A model generated the notes under the pieces. It was not told where the DNA came from and searched no databases. It saw only the letters and a program-made list of their open reading frames with translations. Below are positions 17,409-54,539 of a DNA stretch of 64,000 nt, piece by piece. Both the position numbers and the translations under genes were made by a program. The stretch's first letter is position 1. The number at the start of each line of letters is the position of its first letter. Source of the DNA: a virus; the IMG/VR virus record IMGVR_UViG_3300024262_003767, one strand, 5' to 3'.

Positions 17409-17500
17409 TTATAAACTTTTTGACTAAATTTTTTTATATATAGACAAGTTTTAAAAGAATTAATTGGAGGTAATTTACTTACCTTTAAAAAAAAATTTTT

Positions 17501-23295: not shown

Positions 23296-24060
23296 TTAAC
23301 CGTAGTATTTTTCACACAAAACCTTATCATTATACATATCACCAGTTTCTAAAACCATAGGTATATCGTATAATTTAATCATATTTACAATATTATCAAC
23401 CTCACGATTATTAAATTTTCCTGTTTCATCGAAAAGAGAAATATTATGTCTATCAAGGTGTTTTCCAAATTCAACTTCGGGACTTGGATTATTTAGGTGA
23501 ACTAAATCAATATACTTATGATATTTTTCAATAATTTCAAGAACATCATAACCAGCAGCGTAAGAATGTGCAGTATCAAAACACATACCTAAATTTAATT
23601 CAGGATTATTATCAATAAATTCAATAATATCATTAAGATTTAACCGATTACCACCTTCAGCAGTACTTTCAATTAAAATTTTAGTTTTTGCATTTGTTTT
23701 TTGGTAGGCTCTTTTTAGATTATAAAGTGTGTTTTTAATACCTTCTTCTTTGTCTTTATTTGAACCCATATGTATAACTAATCCACTTGCTTCAATAGCA
23801 TCACAAAAATTAAGATTGTCGGCTAATGATTTAGGTAAAACTGGTTTATCTGATGCAAGGTTTACATAATAATTAATGTGTACAAATATAGGAATGCGCA
23901 ATTCTTTCATTGCTTGAACATTTTCGTTTGTGTGGTTTGAAGGAAAATAACTTCTTGGACTACCAGGAAAAATCTGTATAGAACCAAGTTTCTCAATCTT
24001 TGCTTGTTCAGCAGCGATTTTTAATCCTTTTGATATTGATAAGTGATATCCTATTTTCAT
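23296..24060 (-). CDS. nfo: endonuclease IV (Nfo, AP endonuclease family 2)
   Basis: Collinear with E. coli Nfo: GYHLS, HINYYVNL, HMGS, ESTAEGGN, CFDTAHSYAAGYD, HLNN..FGKHLDRH, VLETG. Confidence 0.85.
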   Translation of the reverse strand: MKIGYHLSISKGLKIAAEQAKIEKLGSIQIFPGSPRSYFPSNHTNENVQAMKELRIPIFVHINYYVNLASDKPVLPKSLADNLNFCDAIEASGLVIHMGSNKDKEEGIKNTLYNLKRAYQKTNAKTKILIESTAEGGNRLNLNDIIEFIDNNPELNLGMCFDTAHSYAAGYDVLEIIEKYHKYIDLVHLNNPSPEVEFGKHLDRHNISLFDETGKFNNREVDNIVNMIKLYDIPMVLETGDMYNDKVLCEKYYG

Positions 24061-24074
24061 ATATTTTAAAATTA

Positions 24075-24111
24075 AAAGTGTTTACCCATTATATAATGAG
24101 TAAACACTTTT
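24075..24111 (-). terminator. hairpin terminator downstream of gene 24114..24923
   Basis: aaaagtgtttac...gtaaacactttt 12-bp inverted repeat. Confidence 0.5.
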
Positions 24112-24113
24112 GT

Positions 24114-24923
24114 TTATTTGATATTTACAACATAAAATGCTTTCTTCTTATGAAGAACATCAATGAAAGTGATGCTAGTGTTGTCACCTTTATATGGTTT
24201 TAAAGTGTGAACATCACCACAAGGATTATGTCCAACTATCTGATGATATCCAACTATTGGTTTATTTGCCAATTCTTTATCTAACCATAGTGGTCCACCT
24301 ACTTTACAATGTCCACCTCTACGATGACCAACATCAAACATACATTCCATTCTATGAGTAAATGCCAAATTCAATTTATCTGCAAGGTTGTTGATTGTAT
24401 AATCAATTTCCATTCTTTTTAGAAATTCTTCTACTTTATAGAATTCTTTATCAAATCTAGTATTGTACCAACCTTTGTGTACGCCTGCGTGAGTGAATAG
24501 ATAATTTTCAACTTGAAATGCCATTTGAAACAACTCAAAGTTTTTATTAAATAGTTCATATAAATCAAATCGCATTTCTGGACGATAACCACTACATTCA
24601 TATTTATTGCTATGAATCCAAGGTGAAGTTAATGCGTAATGTAATTCGTGATTACCCCACAACAGAATAACATTCCGTGGATAAAGTGTTTTGAATTTAA
24701 TTAAATCAATTATATTTTCTCGTATCTGATTGTTATCTTTATCAAAAGCATCACAGTAGTCACCAAGAAAAACATAATAATCATAATCCATATCAACAAT
24801 ATCATATATCTGGTTGCCTTCTTCCATTTGAAGAAGGTAACTGATATCGGCAAAAGTTTTCCAAACATTTCTACCGTGCAAATCTCCTATGACCATTATT
24901 TTTTTCATAATGCAAAGATACAA
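24114..24923 (-). CDS. PPP-family metallophosphoesterase (Ser/Thr phosphatase / ApaH-like)
   Basis: GDLHG, GDYCDAFD (GDxxDRG-like), GNHE motifs in canonical order. Confidence 0.8.
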   Translation of the reverse strand: MYLCIMKKIMVIGDLHGRNVWKTFADISYLLQMEEGNQIYDIVDMDYDYYVFLGDYCDAFDKDNNQIRENIIDLIKFKTLYPRNVILLWGNHELHYALTSPWIHSNKYECSGYRPEMRFDLYELFNKNFELFQMAFQVENYLFTHAGVHKGWYNTRFDKEFYKVEEFLKRMEIDYTINNLADKLNLAFTHRMECMFDVGHRRGGHCKVGGPLWLDKELANKPIVGYHQIVGHNPCGDVHTLKPYKGDNTSITFIDVLHKKKAFYVVNIK

Positions 24924-25974: not shown

Positions 25975-26030
25975 ACTACTTTCTTTTTTTATTATATATT
26001 AAATATTATATTTGTAAAAAAATTGTACAT

Positions 26031-26282
26031 ATGTTTGATAAATTACCATATACATCTAAGTTGAAAGTTTGTGAATTGTTTTATCTTGAAACAATTAGGA
26101 TTCCTAAAGATTATTTGTTACCGAAAAAAATATTTTTTTCGTGGAGTTGGATAACTGTTGAAACGTTATCAGGTGAAAGACTATTTAGAAGGGTTGAGGT
26201 TGAGAATTGGTATAATAATAATTTAAAATCAATTAGAAAACATAAATTACTTAGCATAACAAAAAGAGAAATGGTTAGCTAA
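26031..26282 (+). CDS. hypothetical protein
   Basis: 83-aa ORF. Confidence 0.4.
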   Translation: MFDKLPYTSKLKVCELFYLETIRIPKDYLLPKKIFFSWSWITVETLSGERLFRRVEVENWYNNNLKSIRKHKLLSITKREMVS

Positions 26283-26324
26283 ACTAACTACCTCTCTTTA
26301 ATGTATATTTCTTAGGATGACTAT

Positions 26325-26473
26325 TTATCTTTTTTAGTCTCTTTGGTTTCCTTTTCTTCTTTCTTTTCAAGAACATCTTTAGCAACGTCTGTTCTCTTAG
26401 TTTTCTTTGCTGGCTTGTTGTACTTTTCACTATGTTCTGTGAAAGAAAGTAAGTTATTTAATTTATCTGCCAT
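26325..26473 (-). CDS. small K/E-rich protein (alternative to the + strand ORF 26343..26525)
   Basis: Minus-strand 49-aa ORF MADKLNNLLSFTEHSEKYNKPAKKTKRTDVAKDVLEKKEEKETKETKKDK preceded (in gene orientation) by the conserved TTTTAATATATAATAAAAAAT upstream motif. Confidence 0.3.
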
Positions 26474-26665
26474 TTCTTTGTTTTATTTTTTATTATATAT
26501 TAAAAATATAAACTCATTTTTATAGTCTATATATTAATATTTTTCTTTGTTTTTTCTAACTATCAGAAAAAAGAAAAAACTTATCATACACTTTTTTATA
26601 TATATTAGAAATTTAAACTATAAATGAAACATATTTATTCATACAAATCAGGTCTAACAGCGGAT

Positions 26666-26738
26666 TTTTGTTTTAGTGGTTTTAAACAAAAATTCCGTAT
26701 ATGATTTGCTATATAGTTTAAAACCACTTCATTACGAG
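26666..26738 (+). promoter_or_regulatory. attenuator-like alternative RNA structure with terminator, upstream of gene 26773
   Basis: 13-bp perfect inverted repeat agtggttttaaac (26666-78) / gtttaaaaccact (26706-18); IR2 overlaps the left arm of the hairpin aaaccac...gtggttt + T-run (26711-26738). Confidence 0.4.
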
Positions 26739-26772
26739 GTGGTTTTTTATTTTTAAAAACATACTATAAAAA

Positions 26773-27324
26773 ATGGAACAATTAATTTGGAAAAAATGGA
26801 ATCGGGAAACTATTGATGATATCAATCAGTATGTCTTGGATTATGTAAAAAATGTTGATAGGAATGTTAAGATTATTGTTGGTTGTGACTCACATCCACA
26901 TAGAAGAAGATTAGTATATGCTGTCACTATTATTTTATATAATGAATCACTCAGAAAGGGTGCTCACGTTGTTTATGCTAAAGTAAAAATACCAAGATTG
27001 CGTGATGTTAGTGCAAAAATTAGAAAGGAAGCAGAATTTGTTTATACTGTTGCTGAATCCTTAGACCAAACATTAAGGGGCACTTACTATCATAAGTTTG
27101 ATAAAAATACTTACGATGATACTATCCCAACCAAATTAGTTGAAGTTCACGTTGATGTTAATCCTAAGAGAAACACAAGAAATGGTAGAAAATATTCAAA
27201 TAACTTATCTAATGATGTATATCAAGAAATTATGGGTTGGTTATGTGGTTCAGGTTTCAAGGTGTTCGCTAAACCACATGCGTATGGTTCAACTGGATCT
27301 GCGGATAAATTATCAAAAAGTTAA
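26773..27324 (+). CDS. hypothetical protein
   Basis: 183-aa ORF; IIVGCDSH motif of unknown affinity. Confidence 0.55.
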   Translation: MEQLIWKKWNRETIDDINQYVLDYVKNVDRNVKIIVGCDSHPHRRRLVYAVTIILYNESLRKGAHVVYAKVKIPRLRDVSAKIRKEAEFVYTVAESLDQTLRGTYYHKFDKNTYDDTIPTKLVEVHVDVNPKRNTRNGRKYSNNLSNDVYQEIMGWLCGSGFKVFAKPHAYGSTGSADKLSKS

Positions 27325-27352
27325 ATTAAAAAGCCTAATTATATTAGGCTTT

Positions 27353-28216
27353 TTAATTTAATTCACCTTCCCAAACAATTTTATATTCATATTTACCTGG
27401 TAGTAGTATAATTTCTCTTTGATTTGTATGGTAATATTGTGTTGGTAATTTCTGTACGTCAACTAGTACATCTTTAGGTTGTACTTCCATCATAATAACA
27501 AAAGGTGGTGATGATGGTTGTTCATCCACAAATCTTCTAGCCACTAATATATTTGTAGTCCAAGATGTCGACATATTGAAATCGGATATAACTTTTTCAC
27601 CAACTTTGTATGGTGGGGTTTTTTTTGAAAAATGTTTTATTTGAACTTCTTCAATACCTTTATAAATCTTTAAAGGTTTATCTGGTTTAAAAGGTTTTAA
27701 TTCGTCTATAATATCTTGTGTTAATTTTGATAATAACAAAGAGCCAGAACCTATATATGAATATAACCAATCATCAGTTTTTTCAGATAATTCAACATTT
27801 ATCCTTTCAGGTGTATGTTTATCATATTTAGTAAATCCTCCAATGTAACGAAAAGATATCACATCTCCATTTTTAATTCTTGCTAACCATTCACCTGTTA
27901 TTGAATGTTTATAAAAATAACCAGAATAATCATCAACATCAACTTCTTCATCTTCACTAAATCCAAAAAAATCTACAATTTGTTTATATAGAGGTTTTTT
28001 TGTTTTAATTTGATAGATATATTCACTATTTATATCAGATGCGTCTGCTCTATTTGTTAAATAGATTCTTTTTAAATGATTTAGATTACTAAAATCTATA
28101 TCTTCTAATTTTAATGGTTCATCAGAATATAAATATAAATTTCCATTATATGTTTTTTGATCGTAATCTACTTCATTATAATCTACAAGTTCAAATAATT
28201 TGAATTTAGTTATCAT
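27353..28216 (-). CDS. hypothetical protein
   Basis: 287-aa ORF overlapping the start of the cca gene. Confidence 0.55.
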   Translation of the reverse strand: MITKFKLFELVDYNEVDYDQKTYNGNLYLYSDEPLKLEDIDFSNLNHLKRIYLTNRADASDINSEYIYQIKTKKPLYKQIVDFFGFSEDEEVDVDDYSGYFYKHSITGEWLARIKNGDVISFRYIGGFTKYDKHTPERINVELSEKTDDWLYSYIGSGSLLLSKLTQDIIDELKPFKPDKPLKIYKGIEEVQIKHFSKKTPPYKVGEKVISDFNMSTSWTTNILVARRFVDEQPSSPPFVIMMEVQPKDVLVDVQKLPTQYYHTNQREIILLPGKYEYKIVWEGELN

Positions 28217-29465
28217 TCATAAGATATTCATTTTTGAAACGCACAATCTCTCGTCTTTTCTTTTCTATTTCAATTTCAATTCCTTTGAAACCTTCAGCAG
28301 CTAAATCATTACCATTAACCACAAATCCATCATTACAATAATCAACAAATGGTTTATAGAATTCTTCACCCAAAAACTCATAAATTAAATCATCATCAAT
28401 ATGATATTGATTTTTCATTTTAGCCAAACCGTAAACATTTGAAACGTCAATGTTTTTAAATGATTTCCAATGTAAATCTAATTCCTTCTCAAGTTTGAGC
28501 AAAAATTCAATCTGGTTCACTAACTTGGAACTAAATTTCAATTCACTAATCATATATTTTCTCAATTTACGAATATCATTATCACGAAGTAAATGTGCAA
28601 ATAATATTGCGGAAATAGGTTTTGGTGTAAATCCATCGGGAGATATTTTCAATTTGGGAAACATTTGTTCCCACATATCATATTCAGTTAATAGTCTGAT
28701 ATAATTTTCTAATATTTTGTTTCCGCCTTTTTCTGCGTGTTCAATTACCTTATTCCATTCTTCATGTATTCTTTCTTGTGATACATCTTCTTTGGTACTT
28801 ATACCACGTAGTCTGTTATCACTTTTAATGGCTCTTGATGTCTCAGGTGATATGATACCACCTTTTCTACCTTGGGCTCTTGCAGCGAATCTAAATACTC
28901 TTAAAATTCTTAATCTATCTTCTTTAAATCTCTCAGCAGGATCACCAACAGCACGTATAACATTATTTTCAATATCTTTAACTCCACCAACCAAATCTAC
29001 AATTTCTTTTTTATTTATATCATAGAAAAGAGCATTGATAGTTAAATCTCTACGTTTAACATCATCTTCGATTGTAATATGGTTTCCAATTTCTACTTTA
29101 TCATCATCACCTTTTGTATCTCTACCTCCAGAAATATCTTTTCTAAAAGTTGCTAATTCGTGTCCGAGTGGTTCATCTTCAGTATAAATTCTAAGTACGC
29201 CAAAATTTTTACCTTGTTCATCAGAAACATTCCAACCTTTCAAAATTCTTTTACTTTCTTCTGGTAGAGCATTTGTGACTAAATCAAAATCATGTGGTAT
29301 CTTTTTTTGCAAAAAATCACGAACCGCTCCACCAACAACATAGATATCTTTACCAGCATTATTGAAGGCTCTTGATATTTCTTTAATGTCATAAGGAATA
29401 GGCATCTCAACAGAGATAGTATTTTCAGTTATAAATTCTAAATATTTTTTTAATTTTTCTACCAT
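28206..29465 (-). CDS. cca: tRNA nucleotidyltransferase (CCA-adding enzyme) / poly(A) polymerase family
   Basis: Head-domain motifs YVVGGAVRDFLQKKIPHDFDLVT and RRDLTINALFYD. Confidence 0.85.
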   Translation of the reverse strand: MVEKLKKYLEFITENTISVEMPIPYDIKEISRAFNNAGKDIYVVGGAVRDFLQKKIPHDFDLVTNALPEESKRILKGWNVSDEQGKNFGVLRIYTEDEPLGHELATFRKDISGGRDTKGDDDKVEIGNHITIEDDVKRRDLTINALFYDINKKEIVDLVGGVKDIENNVIRAVGDPAERFKEDRLRILRVFRFAARAQGRKGGIISPETSRAIKSDNRLRGISTKEDVSQERIHEEWNKVIEHAEKGGNKILENYIRLLTEYDMWEQMFPKLKISPDGFTPKPISAILFAHLLRDNDIRKLRKYMISELKFSSKLVNQIEFLLKLEKELDLHWKSFKNIDVSNVYGLAKMKNQYHIDDDLIYEFLGEEFYKPFVDYCNDGFVVNGNDLAAEGFKGIEIEIEKKRREIVRFKNEYLMNDN

Positions 29466-35772: not shown

Positions 35773-35799
35773 ATATATTATAGAAATTGAGGAAAGTTT

Positions 35800-51376: not shown

Positions 51377-52078
51377 TTATAAAAATTTTCCTATTGTTTC
51401 TGATTCAATTTCAATATCTTTTACTGAATTAATAACAAGTATATTATAATCGATTACTAACATTTCAATATATTTATCTAATTCTTCTTCTGTTCCTAAC
51501 CCTTTTGTTGCGGCAAGATTTAAGATAACTTGAAATCCAGCATTGGACAAATCCTTTAAAGTTTCACCTACACAGTAATTAAGTGCTAATCCACCAACAA
51601 TAATTGTTGTTATATTGTGATAATTATAAAATTCAATCAACCCAGTCGAAATTTTACCTTCTTGATCGTGATAAACACTTGTGTAAGGGTGTAGGTGTGG
51701 ATCGACTCCCTTATTTACAATAAAGTTAAAATCTTCAATTTTACCAAGTTCATCAAGAATTTCCGAACCAAATGTTCCTGATTCACAATGCAAATTCCAA
51801 AACATATCAACATTTTTGTGTCCAACTATAGGTGTGAATTGAGGATTTTCTTCAGTTGCTACCCATAACGCATTTTTTGAGTGCATATCTCTTGATATGG
51901 TTTTAACAATTCCTATTAAATTTTGTTTTGCTAATTCTTTACCAATTAGGTGTCCATCAGGTACAGGTAGTTCATTAGGACAGAGTGGAGTAAATCCCTT
52001 TTGAGGGTCAACGTTGTGACTTGCTGTTCTTTCGCTAATCACTCTAATCTTATTCGTATTTTCAAAACTTATATTCAT
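51377..52078 (-). CDS. pncA: nicotinamidase/pyrazinamidase (isochorismatase family)
   Basis: DPQKGF, K, and catalytic Cys in IIVGGLALNYCVGETL. Confidence 0.85.
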   Translation of the reverse strand: MNISFENTNKIRVISERTASHNVDPQKGFTPLCPNELPVPDGHLIGKELAKQNLIGIVKTISRDMHSKNALWVATEENPQFTPIVGHKNVDMFWNLHCESGTFGSEILDELGKIEDFNFIVNKGVDPHLHPYTSVYHDQEGKISTGLIEFYNYHNITTIIVGGLALNYCVGETLKDLSNAGFQVILNLAATKGLGTEEELDKYIEMLVIDYNILVINSVKDIEIESETIGKFL

Positions 52079-52164
52079 AATATTTTATTTATTTTTATGT
52101 TACAAAAGTAATACTTTTTTTAATAATAAAAAAATTGTATTGTTAAAGAATAACAATACAATTT

Positions 52165-52569
52165 TTATTCGTGAATTCTTTTAAAGTTTTCAATATATTT
52201 AGACATATTTACGGAGCCTATAATATTTTGAGTGTGAATTATACATATTGGTAATTTTTCATTATTATCAATACAGTAATCACACAACCATTTGACACAC
52301 TCCATACCTGTTTTTTCGGTGTATTTTGAGTAATCAACATCATCTTGATTTAATAAATATTGATAATGTTCATCTGCTAAATCGTGATCAAAACTAATCA
52401 TTTGAGGTAAACCATTTAACTCAATACATTTAATAAATTGATCGTAAGACCTAACAATAACCCAATCGAGATTTATATAGTCCATATTTTGTGTATAGTA
52501 ATATGCGTCCTCATAATTTCCATGAGGGGAATATGGAACTCTTTCATCATCTAAAAACAAATTGTACAT
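52165..52569 (-). CDS. hypothetical protein
   Basis: 134-aa ORF; LFLDDER...SFDHDL motif of unknown family. Confidence 0.5.
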   Translation of the reverse strand: MYNLFLDDERVPYSPHGNYEDAYYYTQNMDYINLDWVIVRSYDQFIKCIELNGLPQMISFDHDLADEHYQYLLNQDDVDYSKYTEKTGMECVKWLCDYCIDNNEKLPICIIHTQNIIGSVNMSKYIENFKRIHE

Positions 52570-52981: not shown

Positions 52982-53016
52982 AAAAAAAACCTCCCAAAAA
53001 ATTGAGAGGTTTTTTA
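52982..53016. terminator. bidirectional terminator downstream of the flotillin gene
   Basis: A-run, aacctc-ccaaaaaattga-gaggtt, T-run. Confidence 0.65.
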
Positions 53017-53033
53017 AGATTAAACATTAAAGT

Positions 53034-54539
53034 TTACTTCTTATCAGGTTTTTCAGTTTTTTTGGTTTTTGCTTTTTCTTCAAGCAATTTAACCATATCT
53101 GCATTACCTTCTAAGAATCCAGGCATATTCTGACCAACCATTTTAAAAGCGTCATCCATTGGAGGAACAGATTTTAAAAGGTTTGTCAACCAATTAGAAG
53201 TAGATGATCCAGCACCTTCACCACCATTACCAGTATCCCAAACTGTGATGTTATCAAATTTAATTTCTTTGATAGCTTCAACTTGAGTTCTAATAATTTC
53301 TGGAAGTTTGTCTGCAATCATCATTTGGACAGCCTTATCAGGATCACCACCCGCTGCACTTACATAAGCGGCAAAACCTTCGGCTTGTTTTGTCATTTGT
53401 TCAAACGTACCACGAGCCTGAGCATCCATCATAAAGAATACTCCATCAGCCTTACCTTTTTCAACTCTACGAATTCTTTCAGCTTCAGCCTCAGCATCTA
53501 CTTCAATTTTTTCTTTTTGAATCTGTGCAGGTACAACAATATCAGCGAATTTTTGAGAACGTTCTCTTTCTGCTCTCGCATCTTCAGCGATTTTCTCAGC
53601 TTTGTATGACTCTTCAAGAGCGTTTGCTGATTTTGTTTTTTGAGCAACGACAATTTTACGATCAGCCTCAGCTTCGGCTTCTCTCCTACCAGCAATAGAA
53701 TTTGCGATTTCAATAGCCGCTTTATTTTCACCATCAACAGCAGTTGAGTTAAAGGCTGCAGTATCAATTCTCATATTCTTATCTGCTTCTTTTTCACCAA
53801 TAACGGCTCTTGAATTAGCAGATGCGACTTTAATTCTTTGCTCTCTTTGAGCCTCAGCGACACCAATATCCCCATCTCTATCTTTCTCAGCAACTGATTT
53901 CTTTGCTTCGTTAATAGCCTGAGCCGCAGCTTCTTTACCAAGAGCCTCAATATAACCAGATTCATCATCAATATCTTTAATATTAACGTTGATAAGTTTC
54001 AAACCAACTTTCTTAAGTTCGTTTTCAACATTATCTTGAATCTTACTCAAGAAAGCGTCACGGTTAGCGTTGATTTCTTCAATAGTAAGAGTTGCGATAA
54101 TCGCCCTCATTTGACCAAAAATAATATCCTGAGCCAACGCTACGATTTGTGTATCTTGAAATCCCAACATTCTTTCAGCGGCATTAATTTTGAATTCATC
54201 TTCTGATGAAATCGCAACGGTGTACGTTGAAGGAACATTTACACGAATATTCTGATTCGAAAGTGCAGATTTCAAATCAACTTCAAAAGACATAGGTTTC
54301 AGAGATAAGAACTTGTATTCCTGAATGATAGGCCAAACAAATACACCACCTCCGTGATATACTCTGGCGCTGGCGTGTCCTGACCGTCCTTGTGAGTCGG
54401 CTTTTCCCTTCACACGCCCATATACAACTAAAAGTTGATCAGAAGGGCACCTTTTATATCTTGCTTTAAAAGTAAAGAAGAATGCGAAAAAGGCAATCGC
54501 TGCTAATCCAATGATAATAGCAATCGAAAATGATACCAT
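53034..54539 (-). CDS. flotillin-like SPFH/band-7 protein (YqiK/FloA-like)
   Basis: N-terminal TM; SPFH core; long Ala/Glu/Lys-rich coiled region (EAEAEADRKIVVAQ...AEAEAERIRRVE). Confidence 0.85.
   Translation of the reverse strand: MVSFSIAIIIGLAAIAFFAFFFTFKARYKRCPSDQLLVVYGRVKGKADSQGRSGHASARVYHGGGVFVWPIIQEYKFLSLKPMSFEVDLKSALSNQNIRVNVPSTYTVAISSEDEFKINAAERMLGFQDTQIVALAQDIIFGQMRAIIATLTIEEINANRDAFLSKIQDNVENELKKVGLKLINVNIKDIDDESGYIEALGKEAAAQAINEAKKSVAEKDRDGDIGVAEAQREQRIKVASANSRAVIGEKEADKNMRIDTAAFNSTAVDGENKAAIEIANSIAGRREAEAEADRKIVVAQKTKSANALEESYKAEKIAEDARAERERSQKFADIVVPAQIQKEKIEVDAEAEAERIRRVEKGKADGVFFMMDAQARGTFEQMTKQAEGFAAYVSAAGGDPDKAVQMMIADKLPEIIRTQVEAIKEIKFDNITVWDTGNGGEGAGSSTSNWLTNLLKSVPPMDDAFKMVGQNMPGFLEGNADMVKLLEEKAKTKKTEKPDKK

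Follow-up and report, generated by a model that had tools for sequence, protein, structure and literature searches.

A putative ribosome-dependent transcription attenuator ahead of a phage gene for a YkuK-like RNase H-fold protein

Why should a phage gene be preceded, inside its own 5′ leader, by a transcription terminator whose 5′ arm can also pair with a segment farther upstream? The locus that raises this question lies in a 64,000-nucleotide (nt) stretch of viral DNA (IMG/VR record IMGVR_UViG_3300024262_003767; "the window" in what follows), a piece of a large AT-rich phage genome that has a ClpB-like ATPase and an SbcC-like protein among its genes. The gene concerned, at 26773–27324 on the plus strand, encodes a 183-amino-acid (aa) RNase H-like protein of the YkuK/DUF458 family, and an earlier reading made from the nucleotide sequence alone (the sequence-only reading) had described a 13-bp inverted repeat and an overlapping terminator-like hairpin ahead of it. 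The element is best read as a ribosome-dependent transcription attenuator, that is, one governed by a leader open reading frame (ORF), in the 5′ leader of this gene; the support is purely computational, and we regard the reading as on balance probable and hold it with moderate confidence. It is carried by what the computations show directly: the anatomy of the leader, its conservation, compensatory changes in its helices, the coding signal of its ORF and the folding energetics. The sequence-only reading, which had also arrived at an attenuator, was thus right in kind and wrong in several details, which are given below with the results that bear on them.

Every sequence feature described in that reading is present and only the positions were off, the true ones lying 9–10 nt higher. 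The first arm of the repeat, AGTGGTTTTAAAC, occupies 26675–26687 (not 26666–78) and its perfect reverse complement, GTTTAAAACCACT, occupies 26716–26728 (not 26706–18), with a spacer of 28 nt where a 30-nt loop had been counted; these and all other leader features are on the plus strand. As had been noted, the second arm overlaps a hairpin followed by a T-run. Our terminator scan finds the stem at 26720–26746 and an intrinsic terminator at 26720–26754, in which 26720–26730 pairs with 26736–26746 around a 5-nt loop (26731–26735) and the U-tract spans 26743–26754 (AAAACCACTTC-ATTAC-GAGGTGGTTTT, 11 pairs of which 4 are G-C, then TTATTTTT). It is the best terminator-like site between 24000 and 30000, 26 nt separate the end of its stem from the ATG at 26773, and on the minus strand no T-run follows the stem. 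Positions 26720–26728 are common to both structures, so the 13-bp pairing and the terminator are indeed mutually exclusive, and both lie, as proposed, in the 5′ leader of the downstream gene. By the usual attenuator numbering we call the two arms of the repeat segments 2 and 3, so that segment 3 is shared by a candidate antiterminator (2:3) and the terminator (3:4).

A 13-bp repeat by itself is only mildly unusual in a window of 26% GC, since dinucleotide shuffles contain on average 0.87 perfect 13-mer inverted-repeat seeds per window (spacer 3–60 nt) and 5 of 100 shuffles give an inverted repeat that has 4 or more G/C and whose arms stand 20–60 nt apart. This one is the sole inverted repeat of 13 nt or more in the window that has both a long spacer and a terminator overlap. 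We consider it non-random because it overlaps the terminator, because the region folds strongly (−31 kcal/mol for 26640–26760, z = −5.2, with 0 of 200 shuffles as good) and because the pairing is conserved through compensatory changes in relatives.

Comparison with related loci is informative in understanding how the leader is built. About 80 loci encoding homologs of the RNase H-like protein were fetched, and ~55 of them (~44 distinct sequences), all from huge AT-rich phages, share an unannotated leader of 130–150 nt, while 18 loci are without it. The shared layout consists of the motif AAAAACTTA-N10-14-(T)ATATAT, an ATG 8–20 nt later, a short ORF, at least one hairpin, a terminator with its U-tract, and then 20–40 A-rich nt before the RNase H-like gene. 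Thirteen sequences (alignment A2) make up the window's own clade, here called group A, and group B is the larger set of more distant leaders. A covariance model built from the window's clade (R1) finds one copy in the window, at 145 bits, and gives weak matches at the same position in distant leaders. A weak R1 match at 52983–53074 on the minus strand was judged to be an ordinary terminator and not a second copy. A 16-mer from the group A core matched at least 120 loci in IMG/VR, but none of the 80 matches listed fit the covariance model, and we take these to be chance matches; blastn of 26000–28300 against 50,697 phage records gave no match.

Upstream of the leader ORF the window has a promoter-like motif at 26577–26605, AAACTTA (26577–26583), a 13-nt spacer and TATATATAT (26597–26605), which is conserved in the homologous loci, and AACTTA-N10-14-(T)ATATAT is kept at the same place in nearly all of them. 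In the leaderless loci L025, L049–51, L055–59 and L069/70 the same motif stands directly before the RNase H-like gene, which argues that it belongs to that gene and that the ORF and terminator form a leader inserted between the two. Between the terminator and the ATG at 26773 there is no TATATA box or promoter motif, so the gene is probably transcribed by read-through only. That the AAACTTA...TATATAT motif acts as a promoter, and that transcription starts just after it, is a prediction from its form and conservation. A generic sigma-70 promoter scan performed no better than on shuffles (44 sites versus 45.1) and was not used for this reason. An internal promoter at the conserved TATATA(G/C) at 26710–26716, between the leader stop and the terminator, was considered and judged unlikely because no AACTTA stands at the right spacing and because transcription beginning ~7 nt farther on would have its start within the stem of the terminator.

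Motifs of the same type, AAACTT(A/T)-N12-15-TATATA(T), recur before other genes of the window, at 35799–35773(−), 17413–17441(+), 20734–20709(−) and 5684–5658(−) in addition to 26577–26605(+), and start codons often lie just 3–20 nt past the TATATA box. Only 6 of 71 window genes have a Shine-Dalgarno-like motif, and this suggests very short or absent 5′ untranslated regions (UTRs) and Shine-Dalgarno-less initiation in this phage-host system. At 52130–52166, 52 nt upstream of the co-directional gene 51377–52078(−), there is a perfect 16-nt hairpin with A and T runs on its flanks, and ahead of it, at 52163–52189(−), an AAACTT-type motif that overlaps the end of gene 52165–52569; this may be another promoter-proximal terminator arrangement.

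A few loci depart from the common layout. L078 (~150–275) has a degenerate leader in which the promoter and a hairpin with a U-run are kept and there is no ORF, and L030 (2330–2412, with L032 identical) has only the block GGGTGTAAATG...terminator, right after the stop of a longer upstream plus-strand gene. In the leaderless L069 the RNase H-like gene (1501–2052) has an IS605 OrfB/TnpB (Cas12f-like) gene, 1–346(−), a short way upstream, and an insertion sequence may have remodeled that intergenic region.

The leader ORF runs from 26624 to 26704 (26 codons, MKHIYSYKSGLTADFCFSGFKQKFRI, stop TGA at 26702–26704) and passes through the first arm of the repeat. From the conserved ATG the frame is open for 18–28 codons in all 36 distinct leaders, the other two frames having means of 0.2 and 7.9 codons. 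When five separate close contrasts are pooled, the ratio of nonsynonymous to synonymous change (pN/pS) is 0.33 in frame 0 (synonymous excess, p = 6e-4) and 0.85 and 1.08 in the other frames; as judged from these substitutions, the leader ORF is under purifying selection, and in frame 0 only. Several synonymous changes between the window and L006 retain RNA pairs as G-U wobbles, which suggests a double constraint of coding and structure. The AU-rich, Shine-Dalgarno-less start context matches that of other genes of the phage, and the ORF is probably translated. Gene callers passed it over in the contigs of the relatives, and the peptide has no Pfam or NCBIfam match.

The coding signal is confined to close sequence pairs. 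Family-wide there is no three-base periodicity (entropy sums of 25.0, 23.8 and 24.7 at codon positions 1, 2 and 3) and the N-terminal half of the peptide diverges freely, as between L002 and L068, so what counts may be less the peptide as a whole than a few of its residues or the fact of its being translated. A pattern MK.KYSH..FN...AD.LRQR is nevertheless recognizable across groups, and a Phe-rich DFCFSGF motif is found in group A only, where it is fixed at the nucleotide level too. The position of the ORF relative to the RNA elements is regular: its stop lies 10–30 nt upstream of the terminator stem across the family, most often 15–17 nt (two outliers, L016 and L033, reflect a misassigned terminator stem), and segment 2, or the element like it, is always found at the stop codon or no more than ~10 codons before it. 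The window's ORF covers segment 1 (see below) as well as segment 2, the latter at codons 18–22.

This ORF is not the one that the sequence-only reading had pointed out. The tiny ORF encoding MICYIV (ATG ATT TGC TAT ATA GTT TAA) does exist, at 26701–26721, with its stop within the second repeat arm as described, but relatives do not keep it: the ATG is missing in L006, the frame in L005 reads just MF*, and nothing comparable occurs in group B. We therefore reject it as a functional part. The leader stop and the MICYIV start overlap as ATGA (26702–26705; ..ATA TGA / ATG ATT..) in the manner of termination-reinitiation sites, an overlap also seen in L002–L004 and not in L005 or L006.

Four RNA helices are kept with compensatory changes in the window's clade: the 13-bp 2:3 pairing, the terminator, a 1:2 hairpin and a closing helix. 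The 2:3 pairing has 90.8% of alignment cells paired, versus 36–58% when the partner is slid, and two compensatory pairs, GUGGG:CCCAC in L005 and, at a site not shared with the terminator stem, UUUC:GAAA in L077. In the three cases where only one side has changed, the result is always a G-U wobble, which favors a plus-strand RNA over a DNA palindrome. As a duplex it is worth −17.5 kcal/mol (z = −6.4). The terminator has 97.9% of cells paired and three compensatory pairs. Segment 1, GCGGATTTTTGTTT (26660–26673), forms the 5′ strand of the 1:2 hairpin, pairing with 26684–26698 around the loop TAGTGGTTTT, of which segment 2 makes up most; this hairpin lies inside the ORF and is found in both the minimum free energy (MFE) fold and the RNAalifold consensus, which for group A consists of the 1:2 hairpin plus the terminator. 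It has 83.6% of cells paired and two compensatory pairs; the changes include one from U-A to C-G (GUUU/AAAC to GCUU/AAGC) in L005, for which L003 and L004 have the U-G and C-A intermediates, and L073 keeps it by a register shift (GGUAU/AUACC).

The closing helix joins TTTAAACTATA (26612–26622), in the 5′UTR and ending 1 nt before the leader ATG, to its perfect 11-nt complement TATAGTTTAAA (26712–26722), which overlaps segment 3 by 7 nt. It measures 10–12 bp in the window, L002–L004, L006 and L076, and is compensated in L005 (ACUAAAA:UUUUAGU) and L006 (ACUAAUA:UAUUAGU). An outer stem, P0, pairs CAAATCA (26644–26650) with TGATTTG (26702–26708, including the leader stop) in the MFE fold; in group A 89% of its cells are paired versus 22–41% with the partner slid, and it has no significant covariation. 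The two-state switch of the sequence-only reading is thus too simple, as the 1:2 helix (26660–26673 with 26684–26698) and the closing helix also compete with the 13-bp stem.

The energies of the isolated helices are −11.5 kcal/mol for 1:2 (−16.4 with the outer stem), −14.9 for 2:3 and −13.4 for 3:4. In the full naked leader 1:2 plus the terminator gives −31.6 kcal/mol versus −20.4 with 2:3 forced, and the proposal that anti-termination is the default state does not hold up against these values. To include a ribosome, the transcript was folded as it would stand just before segment 4 emerges, with an assumed start at 26610 and with the nucleotides from −12 to +15 relative to the P-site masked as the ribosome's footprint, a procedure that is a thermodynamic model only. 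With no ribosome, the model gives 1:2 and the closing helix and no 2:3. The full 13-bp 2:3 helix is predicted with the P-site at codons 1–4 or 7–13, codons 5–6 give 1:2 and the closing helix without 2:3, and codons 14–25 give no 2:3. The trend in which an early ribosome gives 2:3 and a late one does not repeats in 10 of 11 group A leaders.

From these results we infer the following mechanism. Transcription would start at ~26610 from the AAACTTA...TATATAT promoter, and the transcript would carry the 26-codon ORF and then the terminator, so that the gene could be reached by read-through alone. Segment 3 (26716–26728) could pair with segment 4 to form the terminator, with segment 2 (26675–26687) to form the 13-bp antiterminator or, through its 5′ half, with the 5′UTR, and segment 2 could itself be sequestered by segment 1 in the 1:2 hairpin. 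A loaded ribosome lagging in codons 1–13 would block the 5′UTR, P0 or segment 1 and leave segment 2 free; 2:3 would then form before segment 4 is made, and RNA polymerase would read through. Without a ribosome, 1:2 and the closing helix would form and the terminator would follow, and a ribosome at codons 14–26 would cover segment 2 with the same outcome. The leader would in this way report the lag of the first ribosome behind the polymerase, in effect the speed of translation, and slower translation would give more read-through.

Several observations weigh against this mechanism. The terminator is always the MFE structure of the full-length transcript, so anti-termination, like that of classical attenuators, would have to depend on kinetics, and the naked-RNA state varies among close relatives, with the closing helix in some and 2:3 in others. 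No run of regulatory codons is conserved across leaders, and we therefore do not place the element in the amino-acid-sensing subtype. Tyr, His, Asn and Asp codons, which are read by queuosine-modified tRNAs, were considered as the sensed codons and set aside, since their frequency looks ordinary for an AT-rich genome. Two leaders, L073 and L074, are without a canonical start codon, and the purifying selection on the peptide would fit a trans-acting micropeptide equally well. In L073 (~1340–1440; L074 is identical) the frame is open for 29 codons with ATAAAACGG in place of ATGAAA, and an in-frame ATG stands at the conserved Ala-Asp codon position, inside segment 1.

The more distant leaders are the other source of doubt. 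The consensus fold of group B contains the terminator alone, with 5 of its 7 pairs compensated, and most group B antiterminators are short (5–7 bp) and no better than shuffled or swapped partners. A segment complementary to the terminator 5′ arm does recur at or near the leader stop in this group and changes along with the arm (AGGUG or GUAAGUG with CACCUAC; GUAAGUG with CACUUAC). By lineage, segment 2 and the terminator arm read AGUGGUUUU:AAAACCACU in group A, GAUGGC:GCCAUC in L031, L034 and L001, and AGAUGGCAU:AUGCCAUCU, 9 bp, in L016. Because pairing in most group B members is short and at control level, good support for the antiterminator is limited to the window's clade plus a few other lineages (L016, L031 and L034).

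The main rival to the attenuator is an independent micro-gene or dual-function small RNA with its own terminator, in which the trans-acting product is the 26-aa peptide or a ~140-nt RNA. Leaky, constitutive read-through would then account for expression of the RNase H-like gene, and the alternative pairings would do no more than affect how stable the RNA is or how the small ORF is translated. We give it a real though distinctly smaller share of the probability. In its favor, trans functions are known both for RNAs derived from attenuators and for leader peptides (rnTrpL/peTrpL; PMC6614838), frame-0 selection together with the cross-group peptide pattern suggests that the peptide sequence matters, and the antiterminator is weak in group B. 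The absence of family-wide three-base periodicity and the free divergence of the N-terminal half speak the other way, as does the failure of the peptide to match any known family. The ORF is moreover always tied to one downstream gene and shares that gene's promoter, and an independent gene would leave unexplained the compensatory upkeep both of 2:3 outside the terminator stem (L077) and of the closing helix.

Two other explanations dispense with the ORF. If a phage or host protein or a small molecule overrode the terminator during infection, as lambda Q does at tR′, as the RAT-binding BglG/LicT proteins do, or as in a riboswitch, the ORF would be incidental. The lambda pR′-6S-tR′ region is a case in which a promoter-proximal terminator gives a short RNA ahead of a phage gene, and the layout here is the same; nucleotides are also strongly conserved in GATTTTTGTTTTAGTGG, third codon positions included. 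Yet the frame is open in 36 of 36 leaders and under frame-specific selection, which a switch driven by RNA or protein would not need, and the helix sequences are wholly different between groups A and B, so that no common binding site is apparent. The hairpins are simple and do not form the multi-helix junction typical of aptamers. Neither the window nor 14 relatives contain an Rfam family at the gathering threshold, so the riboswitch suggested by the sequence-only reading finds no aptamer to go with it; at E ≤ 10 the local region gave only sub-threshold microRNA-like hairpin artifacts, on both strands, and ARAGORN found no tRNA or tmRNA. We think factor- or ligand-dependent anti-termination unlikely. 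A chance AT-rich repeat beside an ordinary terminator, or an operator for a dimeric protein, we consider very improbable. The shuffle frequencies given above do show that such repeats are not rare, and a divergent intergenic region is where operators are expected. The pairing, however, is kept in the 13 clade sequences by compensatory and G-U changes that preserve plus-strand RNA pairing only, the repeat is embedded in a conserved ORF-terminator architecture, and it is present in a single copy in the window; a DNA operator was rejected because it is just on the plus strand that the one-sided changes amount to G-U wobbles.

The gene that the attenuator would control matches PF04308 at E = 2.2e-23 (83.3 bits against a cut-off of 25, profile positions 4–145 of 145), and has 41 homologs at E ≤ 1e-10 with 53–90% identity. 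The YkuK/DUF458 family has a predicted RNase H fold and its function is unknown (PMC3985635); a sequence search found no solved structure for the gene product. The gene stands alone on the plus strand, with minus-strand clusters on either side, and a bidirectional terminator at 27321–27361, a perfect 19-nt inverted repeat, closes this one-gene unit. Its neighbors include genes with ties to translation and RNA maintenance, a ribosome hibernation/S30AE factor (PF02482, 24950–25249(−)) and a CCA-adding/poly(A) polymerase-family enzyme (PF01743, 28206–29465(−)). Next to these, 23296–24060(−) and 24114–24923(−) appear from their sequences to be endonuclease IV-like and metallophosphatase-like ORFs, and the relative in L067 carries PF00149. 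The gap between these two holds a 32-nt imperfect palindrome without a spacer (24061–24124, 78% complementary), which is longer than any other inverted repeat of the window. Binning placed one related contig with a Muribaculaceae metagenome-assembled genome, a weak hint of a Bacteroidota-type host.

We may go further and ask whether huge phages carry a dedicated sensor of host translation, an attenuator that keeps an RNase H-fold nuclease of the YkuK type off unless the first ribosome has fallen behind RNA polymerase, in a gene neighborhood devoted to maintaining translation. This is a speculative extension that we ourselves think improbable. If it were true, the lag could come from abortive-infection defenses, tRNA-cleaving nucleases or starvation that slow elongation, and the leaders would be the first phage-encoded family of ribosome-mediated attenuators and a functional handle on the uncharacterized DUF458.

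Ribosome-mediated attenuation is a textbook bacterial mechanism. The papers that we found tie it to biosynthetic operons and antibiotic-response genes, and a full-text search found no phage-borne leader-peptide attenuator within the searchable literature. Confirmation of the attenuator would mean that large phages gate a gene by transcription-translation coupling, would give comparative RNA biology a family of ~44 distinct leaders from systems whose hosts do without Shine-Dalgarno sequences, and would offer a regulatory clue to the function of DUF458/YkuK nucleases. The locus is also an example of an unannotated small ORF and regulatory RNA missed by standard phage annotation.

Among known systems, the lambda pR′-6S RNA-tR′ region with Q resembles the phage leader in having a promoter and then, within ~150 nt, a strong intrinsic terminator, so that what lies beyond is expressed only if the terminator is overridden. 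In lambda this happens through modification of RNA polymerase by a protein, and neither a leader ORF nor competing RNA helices take part, whereas here the conserved ORF and the compensated alternative helices point to control in cis. The classical amino-acid attenuators (E. coli trpL, pheL and hisL; S. meliloti trpL, PMC6614838; pheL, PMC3082878) have the same order of promoter, leader ORF, 1:2/2:3/3:4 helices, terminator and gene, and relative helix energies similar to those calculated here. In our model, as in theirs, the position of the ribosome picks 2:3 or 3:4, and an absent ribosome or one at the end of the ORF leads to termination. The phage leader differs in having no run of cognate codons, in preceding a nuclease-fold gene and not one for a biosynthetic enzyme, and in being phage-borne. 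Its ORF runs through segment 2 instead of stopping before it, its 5′UTR forms an extra closing helix, and its initiation of translation appears to be Shine-Dalgarno-less and nearly leaderless. Attenuators that respond to inhibitor-induced stalling (ermK and the ARE-ABCF genes vmlR, msrD and lmrC; PMC8546547, PMC12421871) likewise combine a leader ORF with a terminator and an antiterminator, and by prediction the phage leader would share with them read-through upon slowing of the ribosome in the leader ORF and a signal that is translation status and not a metabolite; unlike them, it has no known stalling motif and no link to an antibiotic or resistance gene. The predicted logic of the phage attenuator thus appears closer to that of the stalling-induced attenuators of antibiotic-response genes (PMC8546547) than to the amino-acid type.

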